From NCBI GenBank assembly GCA_038318485.1, contig JBBQCH010000001.1, positions 3,434 through 67,433 of the forward strand: DNA of 64,000 nucleotides, in the 5' to 3' direction. Position 1 is the first letter of the stretch; every line of letters starts with the position of its first letter. The DNA comes from Geobacterales bacterium. GTDB lineage: Bacteria; Desulfobacterota; Desulfuromonadia; Geobacterales; Pseudopelobacteraceae. Positions 6,394 through 47,104 of the stretch are shown piece after piece. The notes beneath the pieces were generated by a model, which was not told the DNA's origin, ran no database searches, and saw only the letters and a program-made list of their open reading frames with translations. Both the position numbers and the translations under genes were made by a program.

Positions 6394-7102
6394 AGCTGTT
6401 GGAGGCAAAGACCTTGTCGGCGTCAGGTGCAAAGACGATATCGATCTGCCAGAAAGCACCATCCCCAGGCCGGTGCATCGGCTCACAGATATCCACGCAG
6501 CGCAGACCGTATTGTTCCATATGGTCACACATCTCATAAAAACGAAGGCTCTGATCGGCTATGGTAAAATTATAGGTCTCCAGAATAACCAGGCTGCTCT
6601 GCGACAGCGTTTGACGGGCGCCTTCCAGGATCGGGGTTTCGAAACCGTGGGTGTCCAGTTTAATCAGAAAAGGCGGTTTAAGCCCCTTTTCCTGCACCAG
6701 CGTGTCAATCATGGTTACCGGCACTTTTATGCAGTTCTGCTCAAAAGGGGTATCGGATGCCAAACCACCGAACAACTTTGTCGCATCGAAATAAATCGAG
6801 CCAACCCGATTGCCGGCGGCCGCTATGACGTAGTCGAAGTTTGGATAGTTGTGGATGGTTTTTTTAAGCCCGGTTTCATGCTCCTGTCGAGCTTCCACCA
6901 TCAGGAAAGAGGCCTGTGGAAAGCGCTTTACAACCCGCCTTGACCAGCAGCCATTGGAAGCACCCACATCAATAACGCTATTGACTCGCGTACCGCGCTG
7001 ATAGCAGCGGTCCAGAACAGCCGCAAGCGAAAGCACGTCACGAACCAGTCCCAGTCTTTGCAGTATTTTATCCAGCAACCTAATAAAAATGTTTATTTTC
7101 AT
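6386..7102 (-). CDS. FkbM-family methyltransferase
   Basis: Contains IDVGASNGCW and LIKLDTHGFETPILEGA, which are FkbM-type motifs. Confidence 0.75.
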   Translation of the reverse strand: MKINIFIRLLDKILQRLGLVRDVLSLAAVLDRCYQRGTRVNSVIDVGASNGCWSRRVVKRFPQASFLMVEARQEHETGLKKTIHNYPNFDYVIAAAGNRVGSIYFDATKLFGGLASDTPFEQNCIKVPVTMIDTLVQEKGLKPPFLIKLDTHGFETPILEGARQTLSQSSLVILETYNFTIADQSLRFYEMCDHMEQYGLRCVDICEPMHRPGDGAFWQIDIVFAPDADKVFASNSYE

Positions 7103-9407: not shown

Positions 9408-10919
9408 TTACTTGATTCTGCTTCGGACAAAACCTCTAAAAAGTTCCAGATCATCATCATTGATGGCCTTAAACATAACTGAGCAGATGTAAAATACTCC
9501 GACTGATGCCGCCAACCCTGTTATCAGGGTTCCTATGCCCGAAATGAACGGCGCAATTATAATAGTGGTTGCCAATCCCTGTACAAGCGCCGCGGCAAGC
9601 GGACGTGACCATATTTCCGTGACGAAACTGAACAGGCCTATGTGCAGAATCCGCATATCCACCGTCACAAGATACAGTACGACCAATACAAAGTTCGCAA
9701 GATTTGCCAGTGCCGCCCCGGTAACCCCGTAACGGGGAATCAACAGAATACAGAGCAGGATGTTCAGAAGTGCGGAAAGTACCGAGAAAAAGGCGTTTAC
9801 CCGTGGCTTACCGATGCCGTCAAGAAGGAGGGCCGGGATGATCGAAAGCGAGACAAAAAAGGAGGAGATCGTCAGCAGTATCAGCACCAGACTGCCTTTG
9901 AGTGCATATTCGTTTCCCATCCAATACTTCATAACCTGACCGGAAAGTACAACCAACGGAGTAGTAATTGATATGGCGACTATAAACGCATATTTGCTGG
10001 CCTTAAGATAAAGCTCGCGCAGCTTCAACTTCTGACCGGTAGCATGCAGTTCGCTGCACAATGGAAATACGACACCCATGATGTTTGCGACAAAACCGTG
10101 AATCCTGAATGCAATGCTGGCTGGAACTGCATAATAGGCAACCTGGGCTGATCCTGAATACGTGCCGATCAAAATTCTGTCCAGCTGAAACTGTGTCGTT
10201 GTGGATATCATCACCAACAATGAAAAGGCGCCAAAGGTAAAAAGTTTTTTGAGTGTGGCAGAATCAATACTGAAGCGTAGCACAACAGTCGGAAGCATTT
10301 TTTTTACCACCGTTATATACAAACCAAGGCTGACCAGGCTTGAGAAAAAGTTGGCAATTACAACTTCGCGTAACCCGTATCCAAAATACAGCAGGACAAT
10401 GGTAGTAAATGTAAGCAGACTGCTGACCGAAACATTAATCCTGGTGGAGATATCATAGCGCTGCAGAGCCTTGGGGATGGCTGAAAACACCCCGAGAATC
10501 ATGTTCAGAACAAAACCAAATGCCGCGAGACGAAAGGCAAAGATAGAATCGGTGTGATATGCGGGAGGAATGTCGAGAATCCGTTGAACCATGCTGTTGG
10601 TAATCACAATGATAACCAGGCCACCGCCGATTCCGGTTATCAGATAGAGCAGCAACGATGAACCTATAATCTTACCGATTTCATCGATATCATCACGCAC
10701 ATAAGCTTCCGAGATATACTTGATCGAGGCGTTTGTTACACCCAGATCGAGAAAGGCAAAAAAACCGAGGACCGAGATAACCAGCACCAGTACCCCGTAG
10801 ACATCATTTCCCATTTTATGCACGATATACGGCATACTGACGAGAGCAAGCAGTATCGGCCAGGCAAAGCCGATAATTCCTGATAGCGCGTTTTTGATTG
10901 TCTTATTGGCTAACGTCAT
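9408..10919 (-). CDS. wzx: polysaccharide flippase, MOP/Wzx family
   Basis: 503 aa with about 12-14 hydrophobic helices. The N-terminus LSGIIGFAWPILLALVSMPYIVHKMGNDVYGV is typical of RfbX/Wzx. Confidence 0.75.
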   Translation of the reverse strand: MTLANKTIKNALSGIIGFAWPILLALVSMPYIVHKMGNDVYGVLVLVISVLGFFAFLDLGVTNASIKYISEAYVRDDIDEIGKIIGSSLLLYLITGIGGGLVIIVITNSMVQRILDIPPAYHTDSIFAFRLAAFGFVLNMILGVFSAIPKALQRYDISTRINVSVSSLLTFTTIVLLYFGYGLREVVIANFFSSLVSLGLYITVVKKMLPTVVLRFSIDSATLKKLFTFGAFSLLVMISTTTQFQLDRILIGTYSGSAQVAYYAVPASIAFRIHGFVANIMGVVFPLCSELHATGQKLKLRELYLKASKYAFIVAISITTPLVVLSGQVMKYWMGNEYALKGSLVLILLTISSFFVSLSIIPALLLDGIGKPRVNAFFSVLSALLNILLCILLIPRYGVTGAALANLANFVLVVLYLVTVDMRILHIGLFSFVTEIWSRPLAAALVQGLATTIIIAPFISGIGTLITGLAASVGVFYICSVMFKAINDDDLELFRGFVRSRIK

Positions 10920-10983
10920 TGATATCCTGGCACTATTAAAACATTGTCAACGGTTTAAATGTAACTTTTTAAAATTTGAGAAT

Positions 10984-15823: not shown

Positions 15824-15851
15824 GGCCGCTATTAAACATAAAATGATAGTC

Positions 15852-15965
15852 GAGAATACTAAACCATTCGTAAGGATGGGACGGAAAGCCTACGGGTCTT
15901 AACGAGACAGCCGGGTCGCCGAAATATCTAAACAGATATAAGGCACCCGGTTTTTGCGTTTTCTG
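15852..15965 (+). promoter_or_regulatory. GEMM-I-type cyclic-dinucleotide riboswitch with intrinsic terminator (copy A)
   Basis: AAACCAUUC-GUAA-GGAUGGGACGGAAAGCCUACGGGUCU...AGACAGCCGGGUCGCCGA aligns closely to the Vc2 c-di-GMP-I aptamer. It has a GNRA-capped P1a, a P1b hairpin and a P1 stem (AGAAUA/UAUCU). The terminator CCGGGUCGCC/GGCACCCGG plus a U-tract shares its 5' arm with the aptamer. Confidence 0.8.
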
Positions 15966-25693: not shown

Positions 25694-27076
25694 CTAATCC
25701 GCATAACTCAACGGAGTCAAGTTATGCTTCTTCAGCAGGTCGTAAAGCGTCGGCCTGCTTACCCCCAGCTCCTCGGCCGCCTTGACGATATTGCCGTTGT
25801 GACGATCGATTGCAGCGCCAATAAGCTCACGTTCAACCTTATCCCTGGCCTCACGCAGAGTCACAATCTGCTGTCCAGCCTCCAATGAGTCAGATACCTC
25901 CGTTACCCCTCCCAGATCTTCAGGTTCTATAACAACATCATCACTCATTATAATCGCACGCTGTACCCGGTTCTGTAACTCACGCACATTGCCCGGCCAC
26001 TCGTAGGATTTGAGATAGTTCACTGAAGCGGCACTGAAGCGGCGCACTTTTTTCTTGTACTCATCGTTAAATTTTCGGAGAAAATAATTTGCAAGCAGCA
26101 GAATATCGTCGCCCCTTTCCCGGAGTGGCGGCAGTGTAATGGTAATCACTCCGATCCGATAATAAAGATCCTCCCGAAAACGCCCTTCTGCTATCGCCTT
26201 GACAATATCCACATTGGTGGCGCAGACCGTACGGGTATCAATGGCGATGTCTTCACGTCCGCCAACCCTCTGAATAACACCTTCCTGTAAAAAACGGAGC
26301 AGTTTCACCTGCAGATTAAAAGGAAGCTCACCGATTTCGTCCAGGAACAATGTCCCCTGATGTGCGTACTGCAACTTCCCCTGAACGGTGGCGTGGGCGC
26401 CGGTAAAAGATCCTTTTTCATGACCGAACAGTTCCGACTCAAGCAGATTGTCCGGTATGGCTCCGCAATTGATCGGTATAAACGGACCACTTTTCCGGAA
26501 ACCGGCTTCATGAATAGCCTGGGCCACCAACTCTTTTCCGGTTCCGCTTTCACCTGTAATAAATATCGACACATCGGATGAGGCAACCTTTTTGATGGTA
26601 GAAAAAACAGTCTGCATGGCCGGACACTGGCCGATAATTCCGTTGGAGTTTGTAGATTTCAGTTCAATGGAATGCTGCAATTTGCGATTCTGCTCCTCAA
26701 TGTTGGACAGATGGAAAGCACGTCCGATGATGACCTTGAGTTCGCTTAGGACCGGCGGTTTCGGGTAAAAGTCATAGGCTCCCAGTTGCATTGCCCTTAA
26801 AGCATTTTCACGCTCACTGTTGCCGGTCAACATGATAATTTTGGCACGCATGTTTAACTCCAGCATTTCCGCCAAGCCCCTGAACCCTTCTTCTGAGGTA
26901 TTTTCATGGGGTGGCAGGCCCAAATCAAGCAGCACAACTCCCGGCTGAAATTTTTTAAACAGATTGAGCCCCTCGTTAACATCGCCGGCCAGCATAACCG
27001 TATAATCATCTGCCAGCCCCCATTTGAGCTGTTGGCGGATATCGGAATTATCATCAACTATCAGTATTTTTTCCAT
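25694..27076 (-). CDS. prsR: sigma-54-dependent response regulator, PEP-CTERM-box type (PrsR)
   Basis: It has a receiver domain (ILIVDDNSDIRQQL...DLGLPP), an AAA+ domain (GESGTGKELVA, GAFTGA-like GSFTGA, ESELFGHEKG) and a C-terminal Fis HTH. AAGGAG precedes the ATG at 27076. Confidence 0.85.
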   Translation of the reverse strand: MEKILIVDDNSDIRQQLKWGLADDYTVMLAGDVNEGLNLFKKFQPGVVLLDLGLPPHENTSEEGFRGLAEMLELNMRAKIIMLTGNSERENALRAMQLGAYDFYPKPPVLSELKVIIGRAFHLSNIEEQNRKLQHSIELKSTNSNGIIGQCPAMQTVFSTIKKVASSDVSIFITGESGTGKELVAQAIHEAGFRKSGPFIPINCGAIPDNLLESELFGHEKGSFTGAHATVQGKLQYAHQGTLFLDEIGELPFNLQVKLLRFLQEGVIQRVGGREDIAIDTRTVCATNVDIVKAIAEGRFREDLYYRIGVITITLPPLRERGDDILLLANYFLRKFNDEYKKKVRRFSAASVNYLKSYEWPGNVRELQNRVQRAIIMSDDVVIEPEDLGGVTEVSDSLEAGQQIVTLREARDKVERELIGAAIDRHNGNIVKAAEELGVSRPTLYDLLKKHNLTPLSYAD

Positions 27077-27100
27077 GTGCTTCTCCTTGGAAACATTAAT

Positions 27101-27177
27101 CAAATCCCCCTCAATCCCCCTTTGCAAAGAGGGAAACTTCAGAATCTCCGATTTTTAAAGTGGGTTAGGGGGATTTG
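27101..27177. repeat. REP-like nested palindrome between prsK and prsR
   Basis: CAAATCCCCC (27101-27110) and GGGGGATTTG (27168-27177) form perfect 10-bp arms. An inner hairpin CCCCCTTTGCAAAGAGGG is also present. The right arm lies in the last codons of prsK. Confidence 0.6.
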
Positions 27178-29225
27178 ATGTTAGCAGCGCTACTGAACCA
27201 GACTGTAAAAACCGAGCCACTGCCAGCCACGCTGGCAACTTCGATCCTGCCTCCGTGCGCTTCAATTATCTGACGGCACTGGTACAAGCCAATGCCCAGA
27301 CCTTTATTCTTGGATGTCCGGAATGGTTTGAACAAGTCCGTCCTTATAAAACGGGATGTCATACCGCAGCCCCAGTCTGTGACCCTTACATATGGTACAC
27401 CTGCAGCCCCGACCTCCATAACAATCTGTTGATCCGAAGCGGATGACTCTAAAGCGTTCATCAACAGGTTCATCAGAACCTTTTGGATTTCTTCCATATC
27501 GACATGAACCATCTGGATCGTTCCGGACACAATGATTCGACTGTCGATAAAGGTTGCTGCAGTTTCTTGCACCAGCGCTAACAGGTTGACCTGTTGCGGT
27601 GTATAACTTTCCTTTTCTCCAAGGTTTTTAAGGCTGGCAATCAGTTTCTGCATTCTGTCAACGGTATTGCCCAATGACAGGAGCATATCCTTCTGAAACT
27701 CAGGATTTGCTATATGCCTGGCAGCGTTCTCCACTATCAGAGAAAGATTTGAAACCTGATTTTTCAAATCGTGGGCAACAAAGGTTGCCACATTGCCGAT
27801 CGCCTCTATTTCGCGAGCCTGGGTAATCTGTTCCGAAAGCTTTAGATGAAGAATAGCCAGGGAAGCCTGCCGAGAAATGGTTTTCATCAGGTCATAATCT
27901 TCATAGATATAGACCTCGTTTTCCTTGATGACACGTCCCATCAGAATAAAACCTTCGATTTCATCACCATCAAAAAGCGGGACAACAAACGAGATCTTGT
28001 TTTCAAGCAGCAGTCGGCTGTTTTCTGCCATTATTTCAGGATTGTCATCCTTGACACAGACCACCCAGGCCCGTTCCCGCATAAAGCTGATCAATGCATT
28101 TCCGTGCTGTATAACATCTTCAAGCGGGTCCATTTGACACCCGGCTGTCATGCTGTATCCGCCACAACTCTCATCGTACAGAAAAAGAGCTGCACATTCG
28201 ACCCCGAAAACTTCGCTGTAAGAAGAAAGAATCCGGTTTAAAAGTTCCTCACCTGAGCGCGATGTGGAAAGCTCCATTGTAAAATCCAGCCATTGGGTTC
28301 GATAATCATATTTATTCTGGTAAAAGTTTTTGTGCAGCACGACCGTGAGTTCACGACGGACCCTTCCGGACATCATTAATATCAGAAGTGCAATACCGAG
28401 CAGAAACGCAAAGGAAACCGTTACAATACGAGGGAAAGAATAGCCAAAATGCTGCATCCCCTCGCCCAGCAAACCGATCAGCAGCAGATATATTCCAACA
28501 GCCATCAGAACTACTGATTTGAAAGCAACCTGGCGTGAAACTTCGATCCGAACCTCGCCCCGGCGACACAACAGTGAATATGCCACCATAACTGCCGCCA
28601 CCAGGTACATAAAGGATCGAACGGACAGGTAATTCATATTAAGGGTCCGGTACAGCAAAGCCTGGCTGTAGTAAAAAATCAGGACCGCCAGAATGGTTCC
28701 AATACCTATGATGTCGTACTTGATCTTGAATTGGGCACTGGGTGATGCATTGGCAAAGGTTTTTTCGAAATTAACCAGCGCAAACACCAGACAGGTCATA
28801 ATCCACAGGTAATAGAAATACCCGGCATTTTGAAGAAACAAAATGCTCTCACCCGGAAAATCCGGAGCATACAAAAATTTGTTCAAGGGTAGCAGAATCG
28901 GAAACAAGGCAACCAGAGCAGTGACTGCAAGCCCACCCTGCAATAGCCGACTAATTTTCCAGGGGCCGGTTTGGCGGGCAAATGTCAGACTACTGAGAAT
29001 CCATAACAGGGGAAGTAAAGATTCAGAGACAACGGAGCATTTCTTCCAGAAGAAAGCATCTGCAGATATTGAAAGCGCAAGTACGTCGAACAGTTCAAGC
29101 AAAGCTGTGACTAACAGTGCGGAGCATATGTACACACCGGTTCTAGACCGTTCACGGTACAGAATGAGCCCTGCCAGAACAAGCAGGGCTATTACGGCTA
29201 AAAAGGAAATCACAACATTTGGCAT
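27165..29225 (-). CDS. prsK: XrtA/PEP-CTERM system histidine kinase PrsK
   Basis: 686 aa with a long polytopic N-terminus, a GAF-like middle, a HisKA domain ([13 protein letters not shown]) and an HATPase domain (DWGCGM...[18 protein letters not shown]). Confidence 0.85.
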
Positions 29226-30361
29226 GTTATTTTCTTGTCCATCAAAAGTGCATCAATAATCCGGGAGGCCGCCAATCCATCGCCATAGGGATTGTGAGCT
29301 TTGCCCATCGCCTCGTAGGCCGAGTTGTCATTCAACAGCAGCAACGCTTCCGTCACAATCTTCTCACGGTTGGTCCCGACCAGCTTCACAGTACCAGCCG
29401 CCAAAGCTTCCGGACGTTCGGTAGTATCACGCATCACCAGCACCGGCTTGCCAAGTGACGGTGCCTCTTCCTGCACTCCGCCGGAATCGGTAATAATCAT
29501 GAAGCAGCGTTCCATCAGGTAAACAAACGGCAGATAGTCCAGTGGTTCAATCAGATGGACCTGGGGTGAATTGCCCAGAATCCGGCGGACCGGCTCCTGA
29601 ACATTGGGGTTAAGGTGAACCGGGTAAAGAATCTCTGCATCCGGGGTCTGGCGGGCAATCTCCGCCAGGGCCGAACAAATCTGCTCAAAGCCTTCTCCAA
29701 AATTCTCCCGGCGATGTCCGGTAACCAGAATCAGCCGTTTGGACGGATCAAGAAAGGAGAACTGCCCCTCAAAACGGCTACGCAGAACCCTATCCTTCTC
29801 AACCCTTTCGGCCACAGCCAGCAGAGCGTCAATGACTGTGTTTCCGGTAACAAAAATCGACGTATCCGGCACCCCTTCCGCCAGCAGGTTACTCTTGGCC
29901 CTCTCGGTCGGCGCAAAGTGAAGATCGGTCAAAGCTCCGGCCACCCGCCGGTTAATCTCTTCCGGAAATGGTGCGTACTTGTTGCCGGTCCGCAGCCCGG
30001 CCTCCACATGTCCGACCCTGATCCGGCTGTAATAGGCCGCCAACGATGCCGCCATGGTGGTTGTCGTATCACCATGCACCAACACGATATCAGGCTGTTC
30101 CTTTTCCAGCACCGGCTTCAGCCCTTTCAGCACATTGCAGGTCACATCAAAAAGATCCTGACCCGGCTTCATAATATCCAGATCATAGTCCGGCCTGATC
30201 TCGAAAAGTTCCAGCACCTGATCCAGCATCTGGCGATGCTGGGCCGTCACACAGACAACGCTCTGGAAGAGGTTAGGATGTTTTTCAAGTTCCTTGATCA
30301 CCGGCGCCATCTTAATGGCCTCAGGACGTGTGCCGAATATGGATAATACTTTGGTTTGCAT
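29210..30361 (-). CDS. wecB: UDP-N-acetylglucosamine 2-epimerase (non-hydrolysing)
   Basis: Contains [21 protein letters not shown]...HVEAGLRT...[27 protein letters not shown]. The 96-codon 5' extension in the track overlaps the tviC-like gene. Confidence 0.9.
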
Positions 30362-30437
30362 GGTTTCAGTCCCTGTTGGATATACCTTCTTCAGTTGCCC
30401 CTGTTCGCCTCCGGCATCAGTACTCGGTGTTTGATCG

Positions 30438-31463
30438 TCAAAGATGCTCCATATACCACGAAAGGGCCGTATCCAGTCCCTGGTCGATGGTATGGCTCGG
30501 TTTGTATCCCAGCAGTTCGGCAGCCTTGCTGATATCAGCCTGCGAGTGGAGCACATCTCCAGCCCTGAAATCACGATGGACAGGAGTCGTTCCCTGCAGA
30601 TGCGGATAATGGGAAAGTAGACGAACATGAAGTTTTCTAAAAAGTTCATTCAGCGTAGTGCGGGCGTTCAGCGCAGTATTGTAGATCTGATTGACCGCAG
30701 ACAATTCAATAGTTGTAGCGGCCAGAAGGTTCATCTGTATAACATTCTCCACGTAGCAAAAATCGCGGCTGGTTTCACCGCTACCGTTAATGTAGATCGT
30801 GTCACCCTTTATCAGTGCCCGGATCCAGCAGGGTATAACCGCAGCGTAGGCCCCTTCCGGATCCTGTCGGGGACCGAATACATTGAAATAGCGCAGTCCG
30901 ATCGCTTCCATGCCGTAAGCTGAAGCAAAAACACCGGCGTACAGTTCATTGACATACTTTGTGACCGCATAGGGAGAAAGTGGCTTACCGATACGATCCT
31001 CAACCTTTGGAAGATCGGGGTGATCGCCATAAGTCGAACTGCTGGCTGCATAGACAAAACGCTTGACCTTTGCATCACGGGCCGCCACCAACATGTTCAA
31101 AAAACCACTGACGTTGCTTTCGTTGGAAGCAATCGGATCAGCTATCGAGCGTGGCACAGAGCCCAGCGCCGCCTCATGCAAGACAAACTCCGCCCCCTGA
31201 CAAACTTCGCGGCAGGTAGCAAGATTGCGAATATCACCTTCCACAAACCTGAAGCGCCGCCACTGTTCCGGCGACACAATCTGCTGCACCTCCAGCAGAT
31301 TACTGCGTTTGCCGGTAGAAAAATTATCAAGCCCCACCACCTTTTGATCAAGCAGCAGCAGTTTTTCAAGCAGATTGGAGCCGATAAAACCGGCCACTCC
31401 GGTTACAAGCCAGACTTTTGGTTCCGCCTGCAGCTGACTCCGGACCGTTTCGTATCTGTTCAT
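30438..31463 (-). CDS. NAD-dependent nucleotide-sugar 4-epimerase, VipB/TviC/WbpP-like
   Basis: [19 protein letters not shown] is followed by the YAASSSTYG...YAVTK catalytic triad context. Confidence 0.8.
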
Positions 31464-31481: not shown

Positions 31482-31537
31482 GCGGTCATGCGGTTAAGCG
31501 ATAATACGAGAATTCGCGTCTTCACTTCCCCGCCTAC
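31482..31537. repeat. octamer-periodic element, copy R3 (tviC-tviB intergenic)
   Basis: GCGGTCAT|GCGGTTAA|GCGATAAT|ACGAGAAT|TCGCGTCT|TCACTTCC|CCGCCTAC. Confidence 0.7.
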
Positions 31538-32820
31538 AGCCTCCAAATCCTGATCCCCGCCGCCCTCATGGCCTTCTGATCGTAGATTCCCTTAACATCA
31601 ATCAGCACCGGATTATCACCCATCAAGCGCATTAACTCACCTGCATCCCACGACCGGAACTGTTCATGGGAAACGGCCGCAACAACGGCTGCAGCCGGTT
31701 TGAGTTCAGCAAATGGACATAAGTTTACTCCATATTCGTGAGCAGCCTCAACACTATCGGCACAAGGATCGCACACCTGAACGTTAACACCGTAATCTTC
31801 CAACTCTCGAATTATATCGATCACCTTGGAGTTGCGCAAATCGGGACAATCTTCCTTGAAAGTCAGGCCAAGCACGGTCACCCGGTTCCCAAGAATATTG
31901 TGACCAGAATGAATCATCTCCTTGACCGCACGCTGGGCTATGAATTTACCCATACCGTCATTGATTCTTCGCCCGGCCAGGATAACCTGCGGAATATAAC
32001 CAATCTTTTCGGCCTTGTGGGTCAGGTAATAGGGATCGACACCAATGCAGTGCCCCCCCACCAGACCCGGTTTGAATTTGAGAAAGTTCCACTTGGTACC
32101 GGCCGCCTCCAAAACCTCATTGGTATCAATACCCATGCGGTCAAAGATCAGCGCCAACTCATTCATTAGCGCAATATTCAGATCACGCTGTGTATTCTCG
32201 ATGACCTTGGCAGCTTCAGCCACCTTGATCGAGGCAGCCCGGTGAACACCAGCCGTCACCACCGATTCATACACCTGGGCGACAATCTCTAGCGTAGCTG
32301 AATCAGAGCCGGAAACAACCTTCATTATTTTTGTGAAAGTATGTTCCTTGTCACCCGGATTGATTCGCTCCGGGCTGTAACCAACCGCAAAATCTGCACC
32401 GAAGGTCAGACCGGAAACCCGCTCCAGAATCGGTACACATTCATCCTCGGTTACACCAGGATAAACCGTCGACTCATACACGACGATATCCCCTTTTTTC
32501 AAGGCGCGCCCCACAGTATCCGAAGCCTTGAACATCAATGTCAGATCCGGCTGGTTAGCGTCATCAACCGGGGTAGGCACCGCAACAATGTGAAAATCGG
32601 CCCTGGCCAGCTCCTCAGTCTTTTCGGTAAACAGGATATCGGCACTCTGCAGGTCTTCCGTCGCCACCTCGCCGGTCCGGTCATAACCGGCCTTCAATTC
32701 GCTGATCCTGAGCGGATTGATATCAAAACCAACCGTTTTACGCACCTTACCGAAGGCCACCGCCACCGGCAGCCCCACATAGCCGAGACCGACTACGGAA
32801 ATTATACGATCAGTATTCAT
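31534..32820 (-). CDS. UDP-N-acetyl-hexosamine 6-dehydrogenase, TviB/WbpO/WecC-like
   Basis: Contains ISVVGLGYVGLPVAVAF and the GGHCIGVDPYYL catalytic Cys region. Confidence 0.85.
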   Translation of the reverse strand: MNTDRIISVVGLGYVGLPVAVAFGKVRKTVGFDINPLRISELKAGYDRTGEVATEDLQSADILFTEKTEELARADFHIVAVPTPVDDANQPDLTLMFKASDTVGRALKKGDIVVYESTVYPGVTEDECVPILERVSGLTFGADFAVGYSPERINPGDKEHTFTKIMKVVSGSDSATLEIVAQVYESVVTAGVHRAASIKVAEAAKVIENTQRDLNIALMNELALIFDRMGIDTNEVLEAAGTKWNFLKFKPGLVGGHCIGVDPYYLTHKAEKIGYIPQVILAGRRINDGMGKFIAQRAVKEMIHSGHNILGNRVTVLGLTFKEDCPDLRNSKVIDIIRELEDYGVNVQVCDPCADSVEAAHEYGVNLCPFAELKPAAAVVAAVSHEQFRSWDAGELMRLMGDNPVLIDVKGIYDQKAMRAAGIRIWRL

Positions 32821-32842
32821 TTGTGCTCCTTTATCTGATAAT

Positions 32843-32940
32843 GCGTTAGGCGTTTAGGCGGGAAAGCGATTAAAGGATAAGGGTAAATTGCTTCATCGCT
32901 TCATCGCTTCATCGCTTCTCCTCTTCTCCACATTCCCGCC
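32843..32940. repeat. octamer-periodic element, copy R1 (between the xrtA-epsI stop and the tviB start)
   Basis: GCGTTAG|GCGTTTAG|GCGGGAAA|GCGATTAA|AGGATAAG|GGTAAATT|GCTTCATC x3|GCTTCTCC|TCTTCTCC|ACATTCCC|GCC. The ends are self-complementary (GGCGGGAA / TTCCCGCC). Confidence 0.75.
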
Positions 32941-34523
32941 TATCTCGGTAAGAATTCCCTGAAGACTTTTTCAAAGTCGCGGATAAAAGCCTCCCCGGTA
33001 GCCGTAGCCAGGGCTTCATCATTTTCAAATGGCACCGAAATACGGATAAAGGCTTCATCCCGACGCTGATAAAGAATCGAGTTTTTTATTTCCGATAACT
33101 TGAGAGAATACTCATCAGAAATTGTTTTGTCCATCATTTGAAACCAATACAGGAACAGCTCCTTGCTGGAATCTTTCTGATATACAGCACGCACGATATT
33201 CAGGCTTCCACCTGGGACAGGAAGTGAATCCCGTCTAGTCGAGACCTCATTCCAGCCACTGCCCGGCAGGCAATGCTTTGGCGAATGAATACCGCCACTT
33301 CCCTTTGCACCGCTATGATACCCGACATAGAGGTTTACTACAGTACCATCTACGCTCCTGTATTGACGAGAGATGTAATCTGTCGCTTTCAAAACATTTA
33401 GAACATTGGCGCTGAATTGATACTGATCTGACATTTTCCAACCTTCAACCTGTTTGGGAAACTGACTGAAAGGTTTGTTTGTTGGTATGTCCGCGTCAGC
33501 GTGGGTATGTATAAACAGTACAACAGCGATCAGCAGGATGTAAGGAACGGCAAAGCGTAATGCGGTTAGGCGGTTAAGCGGTGATACGGTAATACGATTA
33601 TCTGATGATGCGTTCAGGGGGTCATGCGTTGACGCGGAAACATCGCTTTCCCGCTTTTCCTCTTCCCCACATTCACGCTTCCCTGCATCCCCGCCTTTCC
33701 CCTTCACCAATGCTCCCACTGTCACCAAAAGCACCATGGCAAGTACAAACACCATCATGCCTGCAAACTCGTGAAAAAAACCTTCCGCAGCCTTTGCGCC
33801 CCACCACTGGGCCAGAATACCGGTCACAATAACCCGCAGGGCATTGGTAGCAATCGCTATCGGTACTGCCGATGCAATGATGATCCAGCGTCGAAAATTA
33901 GTTGTCTGCAAAATGAAAGCGTAGGCCACCGCCAGCGCCAGAAGTGAAATCAGCGAGCGGATACCACTGCAGGCATCCGCCACCTCCAGGGTTATGGTTG
34001 GAAAGATGATGATGTTTCCCTCGCGCATGACGACAATCCCCGTCAATTGCAGGAATGCCACTGATACTTTAGTGACAAACATTTTCAGAGGAAAGGCAAC
34101 CATATCGTAGATGATATAGGGAATCGGTACCATAAAGATCAGAAAACCAAGTGGAAGCGCCATTCCCTTTAGAATCTCCCGACCGAACCAGTACAGCACC
34201 AATCCTGCCAGCAGAACTATCAGGGAAGAGCGCATGGTAAAATACTCCGTGGCAAGCCATCCTAACAGAAGTTGCAGAACCCCAAGTATGATCACCACCA
34301 ACCCCAGACTATCGGGCTTTATCAGTCGGGTTTTCAACTCCGGCCAGCGCTGCCAGAAAAAGTAGCCGGCAATGACCGGCACCAGGAAACCATGCGAATA
34401 GTTTTCATCCTTGTACCAATCCATGACCATATCAGGCACGATCAGGTAATAGATACCAACCAGGAGCAGGATGCTTGCCAAAAGTTGCAGGCGGTAATGC
34501 TTCAGTGCCTCTTGAAATGTCAT
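32940..34523 (-). CDS. xrtA: exosortase A (XrtA/EpsH) fused to a C-terminal EpsI-family domain
   Basis: The N-terminus is DENYSHGFLVP. Catalytic-type motifs DACSGIRSL, NALRV and FHEFAGMM are present. A low-complexity linker precedes the EpsI-like FPKQVEGWKMSD...YVGYHSGAKGSGGIHSPKHCLPGSGW. Confidence 0.85.
   Translation of the reverse strand: MTFQEALKHYRLQLLASILLLVGIYYLIVPDMVMDWYKDENYSHGFLVPVIAGYFFWQRWPELKTRLIKPDSLGLVVIILGVLQLLLGWLATEYFTMRSSLIVLLAGLVLYWFGREILKGMALPLGFLIFMVPIPYIIYDMVAFPLKMFVTKVSVAFLQLTGIVVMREGNIIIFPTITLEVADACSGIRSLISLLALAVAYAFILQTTNFRRWIIIASAVPIAIATNALRVIVTGILAQWWGAKAAEGFFHEFAGMMVFVLAMVLLVTVGALVKGKGGDAGKRECGEEEKRESDVSASTHDPLNASSDNRITVSPLNRLTALRFAVPYILLIAVVLFIHTHADADIPTNKPFSQFPKQVEGWKMSDQYQFSANVLNVLKATDYISRQYRSVDGTVVNLYVGYHSGAKGSGGIHSPKHCLPGSGWNEVSTRRDSLPVPGGSLNIVRAVYQKDSSKELFLYWFQMMDKTISDEYSLKLSEIKNSILYQRRDEAFIRISVPFENDEALATATGEAFIRDFEKVFREFLPR
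33555..33705. repeat. octamer-periodic element, copy R2 (inside the xrtA-epsI ORF, encoding the linker)
   Basis: Nineteen consecutive 8-nt units run from GCGGTTAG|GCGGTTAA|GCGGTGAT|ACGGTAAT|... to ...|ATCGCTTT|CCCGCTTT|TCCTCTTC|CCCACATT|.... It is colinear with R1 (TATCTGATgATGCGTT versus TATCTGATaATGCGTT, and CTCTTCcCCACATTC versus CTCTTCtCCACATTC). Confidence 0.75.
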
Positions 34524-34534
34524 TATATTGAATC

Positions 34535-34614
34535 CTTTCTTCGCTTCTTCGCTTCTTCGCTTAGCAACTTAACCGCTTAAATGTTTTTTCGCTTCACCGC
34601 TTCACCACTTCAAT
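34535..34614. repeat. octamer-periodic element, copy R4 (upstream of xrtA, overlapping the 3' end of the EEP gene)
   Basis: CTTTCTTC|GCTTCTTC|GCTTCTTC|GCTTAGCA|ACTTAACC|GCTTAAAT|GTTTTTTC|GCTTCACC|GCTTCACC|ACTTCAAT. Confidence 0.75.
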
Positions 34615-35616
34615 ATCCGCAATCAGCGGCAGATGATCGGAACCCAAATCAGGCCCGACCGCACAGACACGAACAGCCAGATCGTTACCTGCCAGAATGT
34701 GATCGATACGCACCCGGACCGGGATGCCCCGAACATCAGCCCGTTCTGTCCAACCATAGCCGAGTCCGGCTATGGAAAAGGCATTTGAATACCCTTTCCA
34801 TAGTTCCCGATAGATCGAACTGGTCGTTGGCATGTTGAAATCCCCCGCAACAATTACTGGAAGTTTTTGTGAGGCAACCGCTTGCTGCACACTCCTAGAG
34901 GACTGCCAGCGTCGACGCGTTTCCTCGATCAACAGTTCTTTGCGAGACAGGTTTACAAGCGTGTGCCGATCAAGCAGGTGCTGAAGACCGTAACGGGGGC
35001 TTGTAAGATGAACAGAAGAAAACACCAGACTCTGATCCGGAGCTTCAACAATGACCTGAAGTCCGCAACCCCTTGGCCAGCTGTGGGTAGGATCGGTAAC
35101 GCTCACCAAACTGACACGCCTCAAGGGAAATTGCGACAGCACCGCCAGGTCACTTTCTTGAATATGTTTCCAGCCTGATGGCAGTTTCAGCGCCGCTGCC
35201 ATATCCCTGGGACACTCCTGCAAGGCTACAATATCAGTTTGCGATTCCGCAATCAGTGTGGACAGGGCTTCCAGATTGCACTTGCCGTTAGCGATGTTGC
35301 AGGTAAGCACCCGTAGTGTTTTGCCGTCGACCGCCTCTGTCTTGCCAAAAGGCAGATTGAATCCCATGAAAGGGCCAAACACGATCAGTGCTCCTGCCAG
35401 CAGGGGAATCAGGTTGTAGCGACTGTGCCAGCCAGCCAGCGGCAAAAGGACCACCAACGGCAGCGCAACGACCCAGCGCGGCGCAAACAGAATGACGGTT
35501 GCTGGCCACCAGCAATCTCCGCCGATCAACATGGTCAGCCACAAAAGCACTACGAGGAACAGATAACACCAGGAAGCCAGCCGGATGGCCCTGAAAAGGA
35601 CTCGAATATCAAACAC
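34594..35616 (-). CDS. membrane-anchored endonuclease/exonuclease/phosphatase (EEP) family protein
   Basis: Several N-terminal TM helices are followed by LRVLTCNIANGK...DIVALQE...GSDHLPLIADI, which are EEP motifs. Confidence 0.7.
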   Translation of the reverse strand: MFDIRVLFRAIRLASWCYLFLVVLLWLTMLIGGDCWWPATVILFAPRWVVALPLVVLLPLAGWHSRYNLIPLLAGALIVFGPFMGFNLPFGKTEAVDGKTLRVLTCNIANGKCNLEALSTLIAESQTDIVALQECPRDMAAALKLPSGWKHIQESDLAVLSQFPLRRVSLVSVTDPTHSWPRGCGLQVIVEAPDQSLVFSSVHLTSPRYGLQHLLDRHTLVNLSRKELLIEETRRRWQSSRSVQQAVASQKLPVIVAGDFNMPTTSSIYRELWKGYSNAFSIAGLGYGWTERADVRGIPVRVRIDHILAGNDLAVRVCAVGPDLGSDHLPLIADIEVVKR

Positions 35617-36895: not shown

Positions 36896-39847
36896 CTAGG
36901 CGGCAAGGGTGTTGACGCCCAGCGAATAGGAAGCGGTTGGCCAGGAAAAACTGTACGGCACAGCAGTTTTTGCGGCAAAAAGTTTGCCGTTTATGTAAAG
37001 ATCCACCCTGGTAACGGCGACATTGTCAGTCGCGGACACATTAACAGTAGTTGCGGCACTGACAGCAGCACCGTTAACTGGCGAAGTAATAACAGCAGTG
37101 GGCAGAGTTTTGTAGTTATTCACTGACACTGTAATAGTAGCGGACTGTCCCAGGTTTCCGGCCGCATCATAGGCCTTCACGGTCAGGGTACAGCTCGGGT
37201 AATTCCAATATCGCTTTGTATCCAGATTATAGCTGTAGGGAGCTTTGGTGACCGTGCCCAGCAACGTCCCATTTAGATAAAACATCATCTTGACAACTTC
37301 CTCATTGTTCGAAGCAACGGCAGCAATAGTCACTGTGCCGCTCAGAACGGCATTCGGTGCGGGAGCGGTAATGGATACAGTTGGCGTGATAGAGTTCGCC
37401 ACCATGTTGTTCACCCGCACCGTATTGAAAACCTGTGACTGGTTTCCTGCCATGTCAAAGGCTTTGGCCATCAGGACATGGGAGCCATTAGCAAGAGTCG
37501 TGGTGTCCAGACTGTAAGTGTAAGGGGCAGTGTTGAGCACGGCCAGCATGATTCCATCCTGATAGAACTCCACCCGCTTGACTCCGCCAGTGTCGGCTGC
37601 AGTTGCAACAACCGTGATCTTTCCAGCCACAGTGGAGTTGTTGGCAGGCGCGGTCAGTGAGACCGTCGGAGGGGTGGTGTCCGGCAGCGGATTGTTCACC
37701 TTGATTGTGATCAGAGCTGACTCCCCCACGTTGCCGACCGCATCATAGGCTCTGGCAAGCAGACTGTAGCTGCCGTTGGTGACTAAAGCGGAATTCCAGC
37801 TAAAACTGTAGGGACCCGGTGCCGGATCAGTGGCCTGCAGCACACCATTGACATATAATTCCACTTTTGTAACAGCCACGTTATCATTTGCAGTGACGCT
37901 GACGTTCACCAGACCGCTAAGGGTGGAGGCATTGACGGGAGAACTGATGGCAACGTTCGGAGCAGCCGTATCCATGGCCGGCGGCACGAAGGCGCCGGCC
38001 GATGTGGTGATTGTAACGGACCCATAGGAACTGTCACCCAGAGTATAGATCCCGGTGCTGGTGAGGGCATCCCATGCGGTGGCACTGCTGTCCGGATTTG
38101 ATTTGAACAGGGTTTGGCCGTTAGCCGGATTATGCAGTTCGACCACATGGGGGCGAAAAGCCGCTGTAATCGGTGTAGCGCTCTGGGTCAGTCCGCTATT
38201 GTTTTTGAGCTCATAGTCATACACCATGAATTGCGCCGTACCATCAGCACCGGTAGTCGCCTGGGTCTGCAGTACATTGTTTCCACTGTAGATATTAATG
38301 CCGGTATTAGGCAACAGAGTGCCAGAAGCGTCACGCCCCACCCCTTTCATCAGCCGGCCAAAGATGACGGACTTGTTCTTGTTTGGGTACTGAAAGTTCA
38401 TTCCCAGTTTATTCTCAGCCGCTCCTCCCTGATACGCATTGGAGATGAAACGTCCGGTGCCTTCCCAATAACCGTTAAGCCCGGCGCCGATGGTGGCATA
38501 GGCGGGGTAGTTGTCAACCTTAATAAAAGTGTTCTTGATGAAGAGCGGATAACCGGCACAGTCACCGTATTCATCGCTGAGCGCCACATTCAGAATATTG
38601 CTGGTAACGGTGTTGCCTTCAAAGCTCATGTTACCCACGTTGCCGCCGGTACAGGCAATGCCGAAGGCTTGGCCCTTGCCATCCTTGTCCAGTACTGTAA
38701 TTGTATTATTATTGAATTTGGAACTTTCTCCAGCGTTAACAGCCACCATCAGACCGCGGCCCTTGCCGTTAACCAGCACTTTTTGAGCGGTCGGTGAATA
38801 GCTTCCCTGATAGGTCGCATCGGTGTGGATCATAATCGTGTTGTTGTGGAAATTGATATTATTGCCGCCCCAGGTGGTGCGAAACCCGACCGCGTAATTG
38901 CCGCAGGGGGTGGCAGTGTTAAAGCAGGCCGCACTACCTCCATACTCATCGCCGATCCTGGTTGTCTGAGCATCAATCTTGTTATTATAAATTTCAATAT
39001 TATTGGTGCCAGCTGACACAAAGCCTATCCCGATTGGATGTTCGCCTCTAGCTGTAATCTGATTGTCATACACTTTGACATTTTGTGCCTTATATCCAAA
39101 TATCCCATAGGAATTGGTGGCCAAGCTGTTAATGGTTATGTTGTTTCCATACACCAGATCCTGATCGAATGCCGTAATTCCTCGCTGCCTCGCGTTTATG
39201 ATGGTATTGTTCCTGATAACGTTACACGTTGAACCGACACCAGTCGCACAGACTATGGAATCCACTCCCTGCATCCTGTTCTTGAGCGTGCCGTTTGTCC
39301 AGCCATCCTCAAGTATGTTATCCTCAATGATGCTCACATAGGCCAGTAACTTGAATCCGCCGACATCCCTTCCTCCATATCTTGCATGTATGCCGGCAAT
39401 CTGAAGCCTTGTCACACCTTTGGTTTTTACTGGATTATTTCCGGCACCATAAACATCCCCTTCTGACAATGCGGCGCCCTGTATAATCGAGCCGTTGGTT
39501 ATGGCAATATCGGATAGATTATATGTATCAACCGTTACACCCTCCCCAGGAGTGGTCTGATTATAAGTGATAGTGTTGCCATTGAGGTTTAAAACCACTT
39601 TTGATGCTCGAATAGCAATGGCTGTGCCATTCGCAGAAATATCCCGGTCCAGTATATATTCGGTGTTGGGAGTAGTGATGATGTAGGGAGTTGTGTAATT
39701 GCCACCGGCAATGTGCACCGTGTTGGTTACATACTGGCGGGAGAGGATGGTGGCGACTGATGCACCTGCGGCGGGGAATACCGGTAAGAAAAGAATAACT
39801 GCGGTGATAATTCCAGTAAACCTGGTAAAAAACGATCTGCTGATCAT
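36896..39847 (-). CDS. secreted right-handed beta-helix protein with C-terminal tandem Ig-like repeats
   Basis: AAGGAGG lies 6 nt upstream of the ATG at 39847. The signal peptide is MISRSFFTRFTGIITAVILFLPVFPAAGA. The N-terminal roughly 600 aa has repetitive N/G/T-rich PbH1-like turns and is a paralog of 42818-44683. Repeats of about 95 aa follow, each containing (V/A)TA.D..GV.KVEFY..G and AYDaaGN. Confidence 0.8.
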   Translation of the reverse strand: MISRSFFTRFTGIITAVILFLPVFPAAGASVATILSRQYVTNTVHIAGGNYTTPYIITTPNTEYILDRDISANGTAIAIRASKVVLNLNGNTITYNQTTPGEGVTVDTYNLSDIAITNGSIIQGAALSEGDVYGAGNNPVKTKGVTRLQIAGIHARYGGRDVGGFKLLAYVSIIEDNILEDGWTNGTLKNRMQGVDSIVCATGVGSTCNVIRNNTIINARQRGITAFDQDLVYGNNITINSLATNSYGIFGYKAQNVKVYDNQITARGEHPIGIGFVSAGTNNIEIYNNKIDAQTTRIGDEYGGSAACFNTATPCGNYAVGFRTTWGGNNINFHNNTIMIHTDATYQGSYSPTAQKVLVNGKGRGLMVAVNAGESSKFNNNTITVLDKDGKGQAFGIACTGGNVGNMSFEGNTVTSNILNVALSDEYGDCAGYPLFIKNTFIKVDNYPAYATIGAGLNGYWEGTGRFISNAYQGGAAENKLGMNFQYPNKNKSVIFGRLMKGVGRDASGTLLPNTGINIYSGNNVLQTQATTGADGTAQFMVYDYELKNNSGLTQSATPITAAFRPHVVELHNPANGQTLFKSNPDSSATAWDALTSTGIYTLGDSSYGSVTITTSAGAFVPPAMDTAAPNVAISSPVNASTLSGLVNVSVTANDNVAVTKVELYVNGVLQATDPAPGPYSFSWNSALVTNGSYSLLARAYDAVGNVGESALITIKVNNPLPDTTPPTVSLTAPANNSTVAGKITVVATAADTGGVKRVEFYQDGIMLAVLNTAPYTYSLDTTTLANGSHVLMAKAFDMAGNQSQVFNTVRVNNMVANSITPTVSITAPAPNAVLSGTVTIAAVASNNEEVVKMMFYLNGTLLGTVTKAPYSYNLDTKRYWNYPSCTLTVKAYDAAGNLGQSATITVSVNNYKTLPTAVITSPVNGAAVSAATTVNVSATDNVAVTRVDLYINGKLFAAKTAVPYSFSWPTASYSLGVNTLAA

Positions 39848-40039
39848 GCTAAACCTCCTTGGTTTTGTTGCTCCTAGAAAAACAGGACACCGTGGAGGTG
39901 AGGCGGTTCTTCGGTAACCCAGCCATCCTGTCGTCACAGGACCTGTAGCTTTGTGCCCCCCGGTTGCCCGAGGTTTACCCTTTTCGGAAGCAGTTATATA
40001 TGCGTGGTACCTGTTAAATCAGAAAATTGTGTTTCAACT

Positions 40040-40168
40040 CTAACAAAAAAAGCCGGATCGTCAATACATCAGGGGTTGTTATCCTTGATATTTCGGCGAC
40101 CCGGCTGTCTCTGTAAGACCCTTGGGCTTTCCGTCCCATCCTCACGGATGGTTTAGTATTATCGTATA
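40040..40168 (-). promoter_or_regulatory. GEMM-I-type cyclic-dinucleotide riboswitch with intrinsic terminator (copy B)
   Basis: The reverse complement matches copy A at about 68 of 75 aptamer positions. Differences fall in the GNRA loop (GUGA versus GUAA), one stem pair (C-G versus U-G) and loops. The terminator is GCCGGGUCG/CGAUCCGGC followed by U7. Confidence 0.8.
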
Positions 40169-46558: not shown

Positions 46559-47104
46559 CGACAGGCATTGCCTTTAACAGTGCGGGAAAAAAGTTTAGCA
46601 GCCATGGCAGCTGGAAGCGTCTGCCAGTCCCCCATGATCAGACGCGACCAGAAACCGGGAAACCGGCGCACCATCACGTTCGTTTCTGTTATTATCAAAC
46701 AACCTCCTAAACCGGCTACTCGTATCAAAGTAAGTGTTTGAGTACATACCCTCGAGATTGAAATTGCGATATAAAATAAAACTTTATAATTAACTAGTAG
46801 TTACAATCGTCCAACCTACCGACTGATCTTCTGTGGTAGCATGATATCGCATGCATCAAAAAAAGGAATGCACTCTCCGGTCGCTTTTGATAAGCCGTTT
46901 TGCAGAGTATCAAGCATGTTCCAGGGTCAGGCTGATGAAAATAAATAACACTATTGTCGCGTATGAATATTTCTTTATCAATATCCACTGCTATATGACT
47001 AGAACAATCATCAATATCCAGCAGTTCGAGACTGCGATTATTGTTTCAAAACGTTCTCAATTACGGTCGTATATATTTTTATATTGTAAACCGGCATAAC
47101 CACA

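Follow-up and report, generated by a model that had tools for sequence, protein, structure and literature searches.

The DNA analysed here is a stretch of 64,000 nucleotides from a Geobacterales bacterium (NCBI GenBank assembly GCA_038318485.1, contig JBBQCH010000001.1, positions 3,434 to 67,433 of the forward strand; the whole stretch is hereafter called the window), and it carries an exosortase operon occupied by four elements built from degenerate 8-nt units. All four elements are located on the mRNA (minus) strand of this one operon, which comprises an EEP-family (endonuclease/exonuclease/phosphatase) gene, a fused xrtA-epsI gene, a UDP-sugar dehydrogenase gene and an epimerase gene. The EEP gene (34594-35616, minus strand; Pfam Exo_endo_phos, E = 1.2e-24) enters element 4 with its 3′ end. 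The open reading frame (ORF) 32940-34523 (minus strand) encodes a fused XrtA/EpsH-EpsI protein of 527 aa, with Pfam Exosortase_EpsH at residues 19-271 and DUF3485 at residues 325-522; the NCBIfam model TIGR03109 for XrtA scored 220.4 bits (cutoff 208), and the EpsI model TIGR02914 matched as well. A tviB/wecC-like UDP-sugar dehydrogenase (31534-32820, minus strand), recognised by the N-terminal, central and C-terminal UDPG_MGDP_dh domains of Pfam, is situated between elements 1 and 2, and a tviC-like NAD-dependent epimerase/dehydratase (30438-31463, minus strand; Pfam Epimerase, E = 9.6e-58) lies 3′ of element 1. A preliminary description of this DNA had the elements flanking genes, which is accurate for elements 1, 2 and 4 at their junctions; element 3 lies inside ORF 32940-34523 and is translated as a linker.

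The octamer periodicity that had been proposed for the four sites was confirmed. Lag-8 identity reached 0.62 in element 1, 0.64 in element 2, 0.59 in element 3 and 0.67 in element 4, against approximately 0.25 at other lags, apart from lags 16 and 24, which were raised too. When all 64 kb were scanned with a sliding 48-nt frame, lag-8 identities of at least 0.6 were confined to the four element sites, and 37 frames were recorded at lag 8 compared with 0-2 at lags 5-7 and 9-12. Tandem Repeats Finder (TRF) placed period-8 arrays at the element sites only, apart from one trivial 2-copy match at 46651. Arrays occupy only four adjacent junctions among the 46 co-directional junctions of the 64 kb. 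The copies also form a related family, as had been suggested: Smith-Waterman z scores against shuffles were 16.1 for elements 2 and 3, 12.4 for elements 1 and 3 and 9.2 for elements 2 and 4, with lower values for elements 1 and 4 (4.4), 3 and 4 (2.6) and 1 and 2 (1.7). The CGCTTC hexamer was enriched approximately 60-fold inside the elements, where 8 of its 20 plus-strand occurrences in the window fall within 409 nt (expected 0.13, p = 3e-13). The family had not been recognised at the outset, and Rfam likewise gave no match at the gathering threshold and only chance snoRNA-type matches at E ≤ 10; a literature search with the octamer strings returned an unrelated primer match only. Comparable elements are nevertheless known from cyanobacteria and from Geobacter metallireducens, as discussed below. 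No promoter-like or terminator-like site coincided with an element in a scan of the window, and no rRNA match was detected in the window, the elements being located in an mRNA operon. Separately, an 11-nt unit, CACTGAAGCGG, which contains GAAGCGG, occurs in two exact copies at 26021-26043 inside ORF 25694-27127 (minus strand); this double is probably coincidental.

On the mRNA strand, elements 1-3 begin with a purine-rich 5′ arm, built from GAAGCG/GGGAAG-type octamers, and continue through a short centre to a 3′ arm. The 3′ arm is C-rich and G-poor, is composed of NUAACCGC/NUAAACGC-type (TTAACCGC-type) octamers and is partly complementary to the 5′ arm, chiefly through GCGG/CCGC. The two inverted arms hold 3-8 units each, and the units of the window can be written as GAAGCGNN and NTAACCGC. 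The proposal that every element has two partly complementary halves therefore stands for elements 1-3 and fails for element 4, which is a direct array of a single unit type (xxAAGCG on the mRNA strand) without an inverted arm. Elements 1 and 2 start directly after the stop codon (UAG followed by GCGGGRA) and stop approximately 20 nt short of the next AUG, so that the ribosome-binding site stays free.

Element 1 (31482-31533, minus strand) fills the dehydrogenase-epimerase junction from the stop codon TAG (31534-31536) to approximately 18 nt before the ATG at 31463; its 5′ arm (31510-31533) reads GCGGGGAA GUGAAGAC GCGAAUUC, and its 3′ arm (31482-31509) reads UCGUAUUA UCGCUUAA CCGCAUGA CCGC. Element 2 (32841-32939, minus strand) fills the epsI-dehydrogenase junction and is followed by the ribosome-binding site AAGGAG and the ATG at 32820. 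Its 5′ arm (32890-32939) comprises GCGGGAAU GUGGAGAA GAGGAGAA and then (GCGAUGAA)x3.6, the last part being reported by TRF at 32890-32918 with period 8, 3.6 copies and a 100% match, and its 3′ arm (32841-32889) comprises ..CCUUUAAU CGCUUUCC CGCCUAAA CGCCUAAC GCAUU. Element 3 (33555-33705, minus strand) encodes the XrtA-EpsI linker KGKGGDAGKRECGEEEKRESDVSASTHDPLNASSDNRITVSPLNRLTALRF, a low-complexity stretch of approximately 50 aa in translation. Its 5′ arm (33655-33705) is made of GGGAAGCG-type units, its centre (33626-33654) includes a small hairpin, GGAAAGCGAUGUUUCC, at 33636-33651, and its 3′ arm (33555-33625) reads UCAACGC..UAUCACCGC UUAACCGC CUAACCGC AUUACGC. Element 4 (34524-34616, minus strand), at the EEP-xrtA junction, runs GUGAAGCG GUGAAGCG AAAAAACA UUUAAGCG GUUAAGUU GCUAAGCG AAGAAGCG AAGAAGCG AAGAAAGG up to the ATG at 34523, with TRF period-8 arrays at 34537-34562 and 34590-34612. 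Its first units overlap the end of the EEP gene, namely the final codons with the stop (..V V K R stop, 34594-34608), where GGUGAAGCGGUGAA is common to the window and to the related locus L001.

A set of 42 related xrtA loci from genomes and metagenomes (L-numbers) was used for comparison. Period-8 elements are present at corresponding junctions in the window and in L001, L003, L202, L205, L207 and L209, and in all of these they begin right behind the stop codon and finish approximately 20 nt ahead of the next ATG. Elements are also found at prsK-prsR-type junctions of the xrtA locus in L003 and L004. The same gene order is element-free in L007, L008, L009 and L011, where xrtA and epsI are separate with overlapping stop and start codons (..CCCATGAGTAA..) and the spacers are plain and approximately 35-55 nt long. 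The dehydrogenase-epimerase junction contains a cleaner copy of the element in L001 and plain spacers of 13-46 nt in L002, L003 and L009. At the epsI-dehydrogenase junction, the array is (GAAGCGAU)x3.6, also written (GAAGCGAT)x3.6, in the window, a perfect (GCGGGAAU)x15, also written (GCGGGAAT)x15, in L001, (GAAGCGGA)x5 in L202, and (GCGGAUAG)n, also written (GCGGATAG)n, in L207. Copies within a genome share more 8-mers (0.133) than copies from different genomes (0.081; permutation p = 0.002). Both the number and the sequence of the units turn over fast.

Other repeats were observed at the same place. Upstream of xrtA, L001 (9820-9990) and L219 (1950-2125) carry approximately 170 nt of extra DNA relative to the window, which splits the octamer array and has inverted ends of its own (GGGGATGAA.AGGATAAACACAGATA ... 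TATCTGTGGTTA); this insert has the look of a small mobile repeat of another kind that is nested in the element. Also upstream of xrtA, L207 (1415-1550) shows GGAGACT arrays and then inverted GAAGTCT arrays. The junctions of xrtA operons seem to be a repeat hot spot irrespective of unit sequence.

The copy at the xrtA-epsI junction is read through in frame, thereby joining both proteins. A single xrtA-epsI ORF occurs in the window and in about a dozen relatives, and separate overlapping genes occur in others; all the fused genes examined in relatives are in frame. Repeat-built linkers homologous to element 3 are present in L001, L209, L003, L205 and L207, and linkers of unrelated units are present in L004 (GTCCCTA, 10830-10945) and L208 (GGACAGRG, 6820-6900). 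In a tree of the XrtA N-domain, the fused and split states are intermixed. This intermixing, together with the unrelated linker units, suggests repeated invasion of the xrtA-epsI junction, and thus that the fusion arose more than once.

In the nearest relatives, the junction that corresponds to element 2 carries a small gene or the remnant of one. At the epsI-dehydrogenase junction of L001 and L205, an element is followed by an IVP gene, which encodes a '23S rRNA intervening-sequence protein' of the PF05635/TIGR02436 four-helix bundle family, and then by another element; the nearest solved structure to these proteins is PDB 2gsc. At the same junction, L202 retains an internally deleted IVP remnant between the 5′ arm and the 3′ arm, and L209 has a GxxExxY gene (TIGR04256; 935-1321) between inverted 8-nt units. 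The window groups with L001 and L202 on the XrtA tree (88-89% identity), and the simplest history is therefore that the window has lost an IVP gene.

This association was surveyed with 80 IVP genes from many phyla, which yielded 75 loci with usable flanks, and with 63 controls. A lag-7 or lag-8 identity of at least 0.7 was found in the upstream flank of 46/75 IVP loci and in the downstream flank of 48/75, compared with 3/63 controls on either side, and the best 14-nt cross-flank complementarity reached 13-14 at 39/75 IVP loci and at 0/63 controls. The usual layout places the IVP ORF in the loop of the array pair (37/76 sampled IVP loci). Most arms contain 2-5.5 units, with period 7 more frequent than period 8; the unit sequence differs wholly between loci, yet the arms are complementary. 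Upstream arrays are purine-rich in 42/48 cases and downstream arrays are pyrimidine-rich in 48/64, and the IVP gene is co-directional with both neighbours at 51/67 loci, for example at dnaK-dnaJ and gmd-fcl junctions. This polarity and co-directional context match those of the window elements, and were counted in favour of a common class.

GxxExxY genes, whose products are PD-(D/E)XK-like, are found in the niche that IVP genes also fill, namely gene junctions at which short tandem arrays in inverted orientation flank the gene, and similar inverted short arrays accompany GxxExxY genes on viral contigs (L308-L312). As a separate observation, with a nuclease fold aboard such a cassette, one may ask whether it moves in a homing-endonuclease-like manner. 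Period 7-8 nt is a hallmark of a wider class of inverted arrays around small passenger genes, which the preliminary description had missed. The literature searched contains no description tying PF05635/TIGR02436 IVP genes or GxxExxY genes to inverted arrays of 7-8-nt units.

When 185,579 species genomes were scanned for three GAAGCGNN units, the matches listed included arrays in at least Gemmatimonadota, Verrucomicrobiota, Planctomycetota, Actinomycetota, Proteobacteria and other phyla. Among the matches listed, 16/116 arrays away from contig ends had a clear reverse-complement arm, which was 3′ of the GAAGCG arm in 16/16 cases. The ORFs around 15 arrays in other phyla were viewed for context. 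Among the GAAGCG-array loci, an IVP gene lies between inverted octamer arrays in L050 and L108, and a GxxExxY gene does so in L024 (5420-5806). These loci also carry many period-8 and period-7 arrays of unrelated units; 198 period-7/8 arrays were counted in 0.89 Mb of array-bearing loci compared with 4 in 0.46 Mb of random bacterial DNA. As an aside, other widespread hairpin repeats, GTCATTCCCGCGCAAGCGGGAATCC and GTCATTCTGAGCGGAGCGAAGAATCTC, stand next to the octamer arrays in Gemmatimonadales and Verrucomicrobiota (L027 at approximately 2090-2140, L046 at approximately 2960-3010, and after the arrays of L028 and L117), so that different types of intergenic repeat pile up at the same spots.

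We consider the four elements to be gene-less, partly decayed remains of a cassette class that resembles rRNA intervening sequences (IVS) and the short tandemly repeated repetitive sequences (STRRs) of cyanobacteria, which colonised the junctions of the exosortase operon and of which one copy was domesticated as the XrtA-EpsI linker; the probability of this explanation is put at roughly 60%. Members of the class would be insertions at cistron junctions whose two inverted arms each consist of tandem units of 7 or 8 nt; on the sense strand, the purine-rich arm would precede the C-rich one. The full form would hold a small passenger gene, either IVP (PF05635/TIGR02436) or GxxExxY (TIGR04256), between the arms. 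In this Desulfuromonadales lineage, consecutive xrtA-operon junctions would have been colonised, and element 2 would be a solo stem left after loss of the IVP gene. The arrays may lengthen and shorten through replication slippage, and the arms may be kept alike by copying at the DNA level, through template switching between arms and gene conversion between neighbouring copies; template switching of this kind is known from E. coli genetics as quasipalindrome correction. On the polycistronic mRNA, pairing of the arms would place a long imperfect hairpin in the spacer from the stop codon to the following ribosome-binding site; this hairpin might be cut by RNase III or might slow exonucleases, by analogy with rRNA IVS. 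An effect on RNA processing or stability is therefore plausible by that analogy, and in the window any such effect is probably small because the stems are so decayed and weak. The constant polarity with respect to transcription shows that constraints at the level of expression decide which orientation survives. Two early guesses, a small non-autonomous repeat and an mRNA-level element, fit these findings.

Several results weigh against this explanation. Every copy seen in this lineage belongs to one operon. The centre motif of the L001 element, GGGAAWGCGGNNKTTCCGCAT, recurs in 65 stretches in the 185,579 species genomes, with periodic flanks only in the contig of L001 itself, so the repeat dialect of L001 is private and a typical dispersed mobile family is not shown for this lineage. 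Comparison of empty and filled junctions gave no target-site duplication, and no transposase or recombinase was identified. The 64 kb window contains no IVP or GxxExxY gene, and the link to passenger genes rests on the relatives and on the architecture; moreover, the IVP gene of L001 and L205 lies between two complete hairpins and not in the loop of one as is usual. The folding of the window copies is weak, at z = −2.2 for element 1, −1.6 for element 2, −0.7 for element 3 and +0.7 for element 4. Of these, element 1 has a predicted RNA fold of −23.1 kcal/mol (z = −2.18), element 2 reaches z = −1.61, and element 4 is unfolded (z = +0.66). The earlier expectation that each copy can fold as a long imperfect hairpin is weakly borne out in the window and clear in several copies from relatives (z = −4.2, −4.3, −4.3, −4.7 and −2.9); those of L001 and L205 form long periodic hairpins, with helices of 4-7 bp parted by small internal loops and z down to −4.7.

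Selection on the sense RNA was evaluated through mismatches, since G.U-type mismatches are expected to exceed A.C-type ones if pairing is selected there. The two types were equally frequent (IVP cassettes, 53 vs 62; gene-less operon copies, 15 vs 15), and the RNAalifold consensus of six orthologous linker copies was weak, with a positive covariation term, that is, no support; both results also count against the RNA side of the proposed mechanism. A selected RNA structure is not claimed, because the G.U/A.C comparison is without bias. Given the lack of a G.U excess and of covariation support, the likeness of the arms is more probably kept at the DNA level.

Among the other explanations, the best surviving is that the elements are home-grown simple-sequence repeats, which arose by slippage in situ from a local seed such as the EEP stop region (..GTGAAGCGGTGA) and were passed to neighbouring junctions by ectopic conversion, with no link to cassettes and no function. 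The confinement of the copies to one operon would be expected under this explanation, as would the identity of the element 4 unit with the last codons and stop of the EEP gene, which is conserved in L001, the wide variation in unit number and the weak stems of the window. It is nonetheless unlikely: the two-arm polarity and the period recur around passenger genes in unrelated phyla, the orthologous junction of the nearest relatives contains a passenger gene and its decaying remnant, and period-7/8 arrays are very rare in the random bacterial DNA counted above (4 in 0.46 Mb).

Somewhat less likely again is a dedicated cis-acting RNA element, whose hairpins would be selected to set relative cistron levels by acting as processing sites, as barriers to decay or as translational couplers from the stop codon to the ribosome-binding site. 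The strict placement of the elements between stop codon and ribosome-binding site, on the sense strand and with constant polarity, accords with such a role, as do the hairpin z scores of −4 to −5 in relatives and the like role proposed for STRR hairpins. Many relatives with the same operon are, however, element-free; sequence and length are not conserved at orthologous junctions, the window folds are weak or absent, and neither a G.U excess over A.C nor covariation support was obtained.

The guess of a protein-binding array is considered unlikely. A DNA-binding protein with an 8-bp register (a ribbon-helix-helix protein or IHF/HU) would in this case bind both arms in inverted orientation. The preliminary description had argued from the mismatch between period 8 and the helical repeat, but that argument does not exclude DNA-binding proteins, as MetJ and ParG bind tandem boxes of 8 bp in operators with an 8-bp period. 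The regular period and the dyad at the DNA level, in which the top strand bears GCGGGAAT-type units and the bottom strand GCGGTTAA-type units, speak for an operator, and similar paired octads were read as sites of global regulators in the available text of Aklujkar et al. (PMC2700814). Nevertheless, the units vary between copies of one operon and entirely between genomes, leaving no conserved box; array length ranges from 2 to at least 15 units; the arrays are found in an ORF and in spacers transcribed between cistrons rather than at promoter-like sites; and a strand polarity with respect to transcription is unexpected for a symmetric operator.

A phase-variation (contingency) tract, in which gain or loss of octamers would shift the XrtA-EpsI frame or the expression of the downstream sugar genes and thereby toggle the exopolysaccharide system, has marginally poorer prospects than the operator. 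In its favour, the unit length is not divisible by three, an ORF of a surface-polysaccharide system contains one of the copies, L001 has its perfect (GCGGGAAT)x15 tract, and unit number differs among relatives. Set against this, the tracts are short and imperfect, with a longest perfect run of 3.6 units and no more than 2.6 units (92% match) in the copy inside the ORF; the fused XrtA-EpsI genes examined in relatives all stay in frame; and the class is also found at the housekeeping junctions dnaK-dnaJ and gmd-fcl. Integron attC-like recombination sites separating gene cassettes are very improbable, since, for all the imperfect inverted repeats between co-oriented genes and the plus-strand GTTAGGC and GTTAAGC at 33566-33581, which fit the attC core GTTRRRY, the flanked genes are a conserved core operon in fixed order and not cassettes, the arms are by eye multi-unit tandem arrays and not single R/L box pairs, and passenger genes lie inside the repeat pair and not beside it.

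Three further candidates were rejected on the motifs themselves. CsrA/GGA sites were set aside as the GGA motif occurs in L001 units and is absent from window units. G-quadruplexes do not serve as a general explanation, with GGG runs in L001 and Gemmatimonadales units and none in window units. Chi-like GAAGCGG arrays were dropped because the second arm does not repeat that motif in inverted form.

Three known systems come closest to the window elements. In cyanobacteria, STRRs have a tandemly repeated unit of 7 bp and form hairpins in the hupS-hupL interval; a role in transcript stability or translational coupling was proposed for them, and a cited title also places them inside the RNase P RNA gene. 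They resemble the window elements in having a short tandem unit that is not a multiple of three, in inverted arrays with hairpin potential, which is weak in the window copies, and in lying between operon cistrons, and three window copies indeed occupy stop-to-ribosome-binding-site spacers and one the former xrtA-epsI junction. The STRR unit is 7 nt and the window unit 8 nt, while both lengths occur around IVP genes. STRRs are dispersed genome-wide as families of heterocyst-forming cyanobacteria, whereas the Desulfuromonadales copies, within the available DNA, are all in one operon; the translated element 3 further distinguishes the window from STRRs.

The multicopy sites of G. metallireducens, as described in the available text of Aklujkar et al. 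(2009, PMC2700814), consist of 3-5 tandem units of 7-8 nt, paired on opposite strands at variable distance, and number 16-49 copies genome-wide. They lie between and within genes, often at cistron junctions (fliP-fliQ-fliR, nifD-nifK and kinase-regulator), and were read as IHF/HU sites or regulatory RNAs. They share with elements 1-3 the tandem units in two opposite-strand arms, and the host belongs to a related order; the consensus sequences seen there (GTTGCTYN, TCTCCGTS, MTYCTGA and GGACCGG) are matched by neither of the window units GAAGCGNN and NTAACCGC, and that text reports no link to passenger genes. For many paired octad sites, a transposase gene of the IS110 family (ISGme8) or the IS481 family (ISGme9) is listed beside one or both members of the pair, and such arrays may, as far as these entries go, be preferred targets of ISGme8/ISGme9-type insertion sequences.

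The rRNA IVS (e.g. of Coxiella burnetii and Leptospira) are regarded as selfish insertions tolerated where the continuity of the RNA is dispensable. In the 23S rRNA IVS of Coxiella burnetii, a PF05635-family ORF occupies the loop of a stem of 28-bp terminal repeats that is cut by RNase III. A terminal inverted-repeat stem and a loop that is empty or holds a PF05635 (S23p/IVP) ORF are common to IVS and the cassette class; the window elements have arms but no ORF, which is present at the orthologous junction in L001 and L205 and as a remnant in L202. The window elements sit in mRNA spacers, whereas IVS sit in rRNA helices and have near-perfect stems, for which no make-up of tandem 7-8-nt arrays is described; excision by RNase III, demonstrated for IVS, would apply to the window elements by analogy. 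The window elements are thus set apart from STRRs, from the Geobacter families and from IVS, each comparison failing in at least one defining feature: they are not filed with the first because of unit length and dispersal, with the second because of the consensus, or with the third because of the rRNA location. REP/BIME and Rickettsia palindromic elements are likewise short, non-autonomous and hairpin-forming, lie in transcribed intergenic spacers and in some cases stand in frame in genes. REP/BIME families have a conserved consensus and no internal tandem periodicity, and REPs are tied to RAYT transposases; the window elements show no such family consensus, and no transposase was seen.

Two features of the neighbourhood are recorded in addition. 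A 479-aa ORF (29210-30649, minus strand), in which Pfam recognises a UDP-GlcNAc 2-epimerase domain from residue 120 onwards, overlaps the epimerase gene (30438-31463) by approximately 210 nt; its real start is probably internal, leaving a plain junction free of octamers. The window also contains three c-di-GMP-I riboswitch aptamers (Rfam RF01051 and RF03167) at 15848-15923 (plus strand), 39909-39988 (minus strand) and 40092-40167 (minus strand). The two minus-strand aptamers stand in tandem directly upstream of the gene for a protein of 1013 aa that contains bacterial Ig-like domains (36896-39937); this points, as judged from sequence, to a genome of the Geobacter/Desulfuromonadales type and to c-di-GMP control of a putative Ig-like surface protein adjoining the exosortase locus.

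Beyond the window, a broader generalisation is put forward more tentatively, as one slightly more apt to fail than to stand. The inverted 7-8-nt arrays may mark the ends of cassettes that hitchhike in operons and form a large class across phyla; these would insert in the sense orientation exactly between cistrons (dnaK-dnaJ, gmd-fcl and epsI-wecC), carry IVP or nuclease-fold GxxExxY cargo and decay to gene-less stems. The rRNA IVS, the STRRs and the heptad and octad sites of Geobacter would then be one phenomenon, and the stems would also create protein fusions such as XrtA-EpsI, apparently several times independently. We could not find such a cassette class described in the literature searched.

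If this reading is true, STRRs, the multicopy heptads and octads of Geobacter and the rRNA intervening sequences would gain a common origin and a testable biology, as small passenger-gene cassettes of the spaces between operon genes together with their gene-less remains. It would also account for the thousands of 'four helix bundle' and 'GxxExxY' genes scattered in operons. For genome annotation, period-7/8 arrays at gene junctions would be neither CRISPRs nor riboswitches, and ORFs that cross such arrays may be genuine fusions. For the exosortase system itself, the elements would provide a concrete route by which an insertion fuses neighbouring membrane proteins, namely the exosortase XrtA and its partner EpsI.

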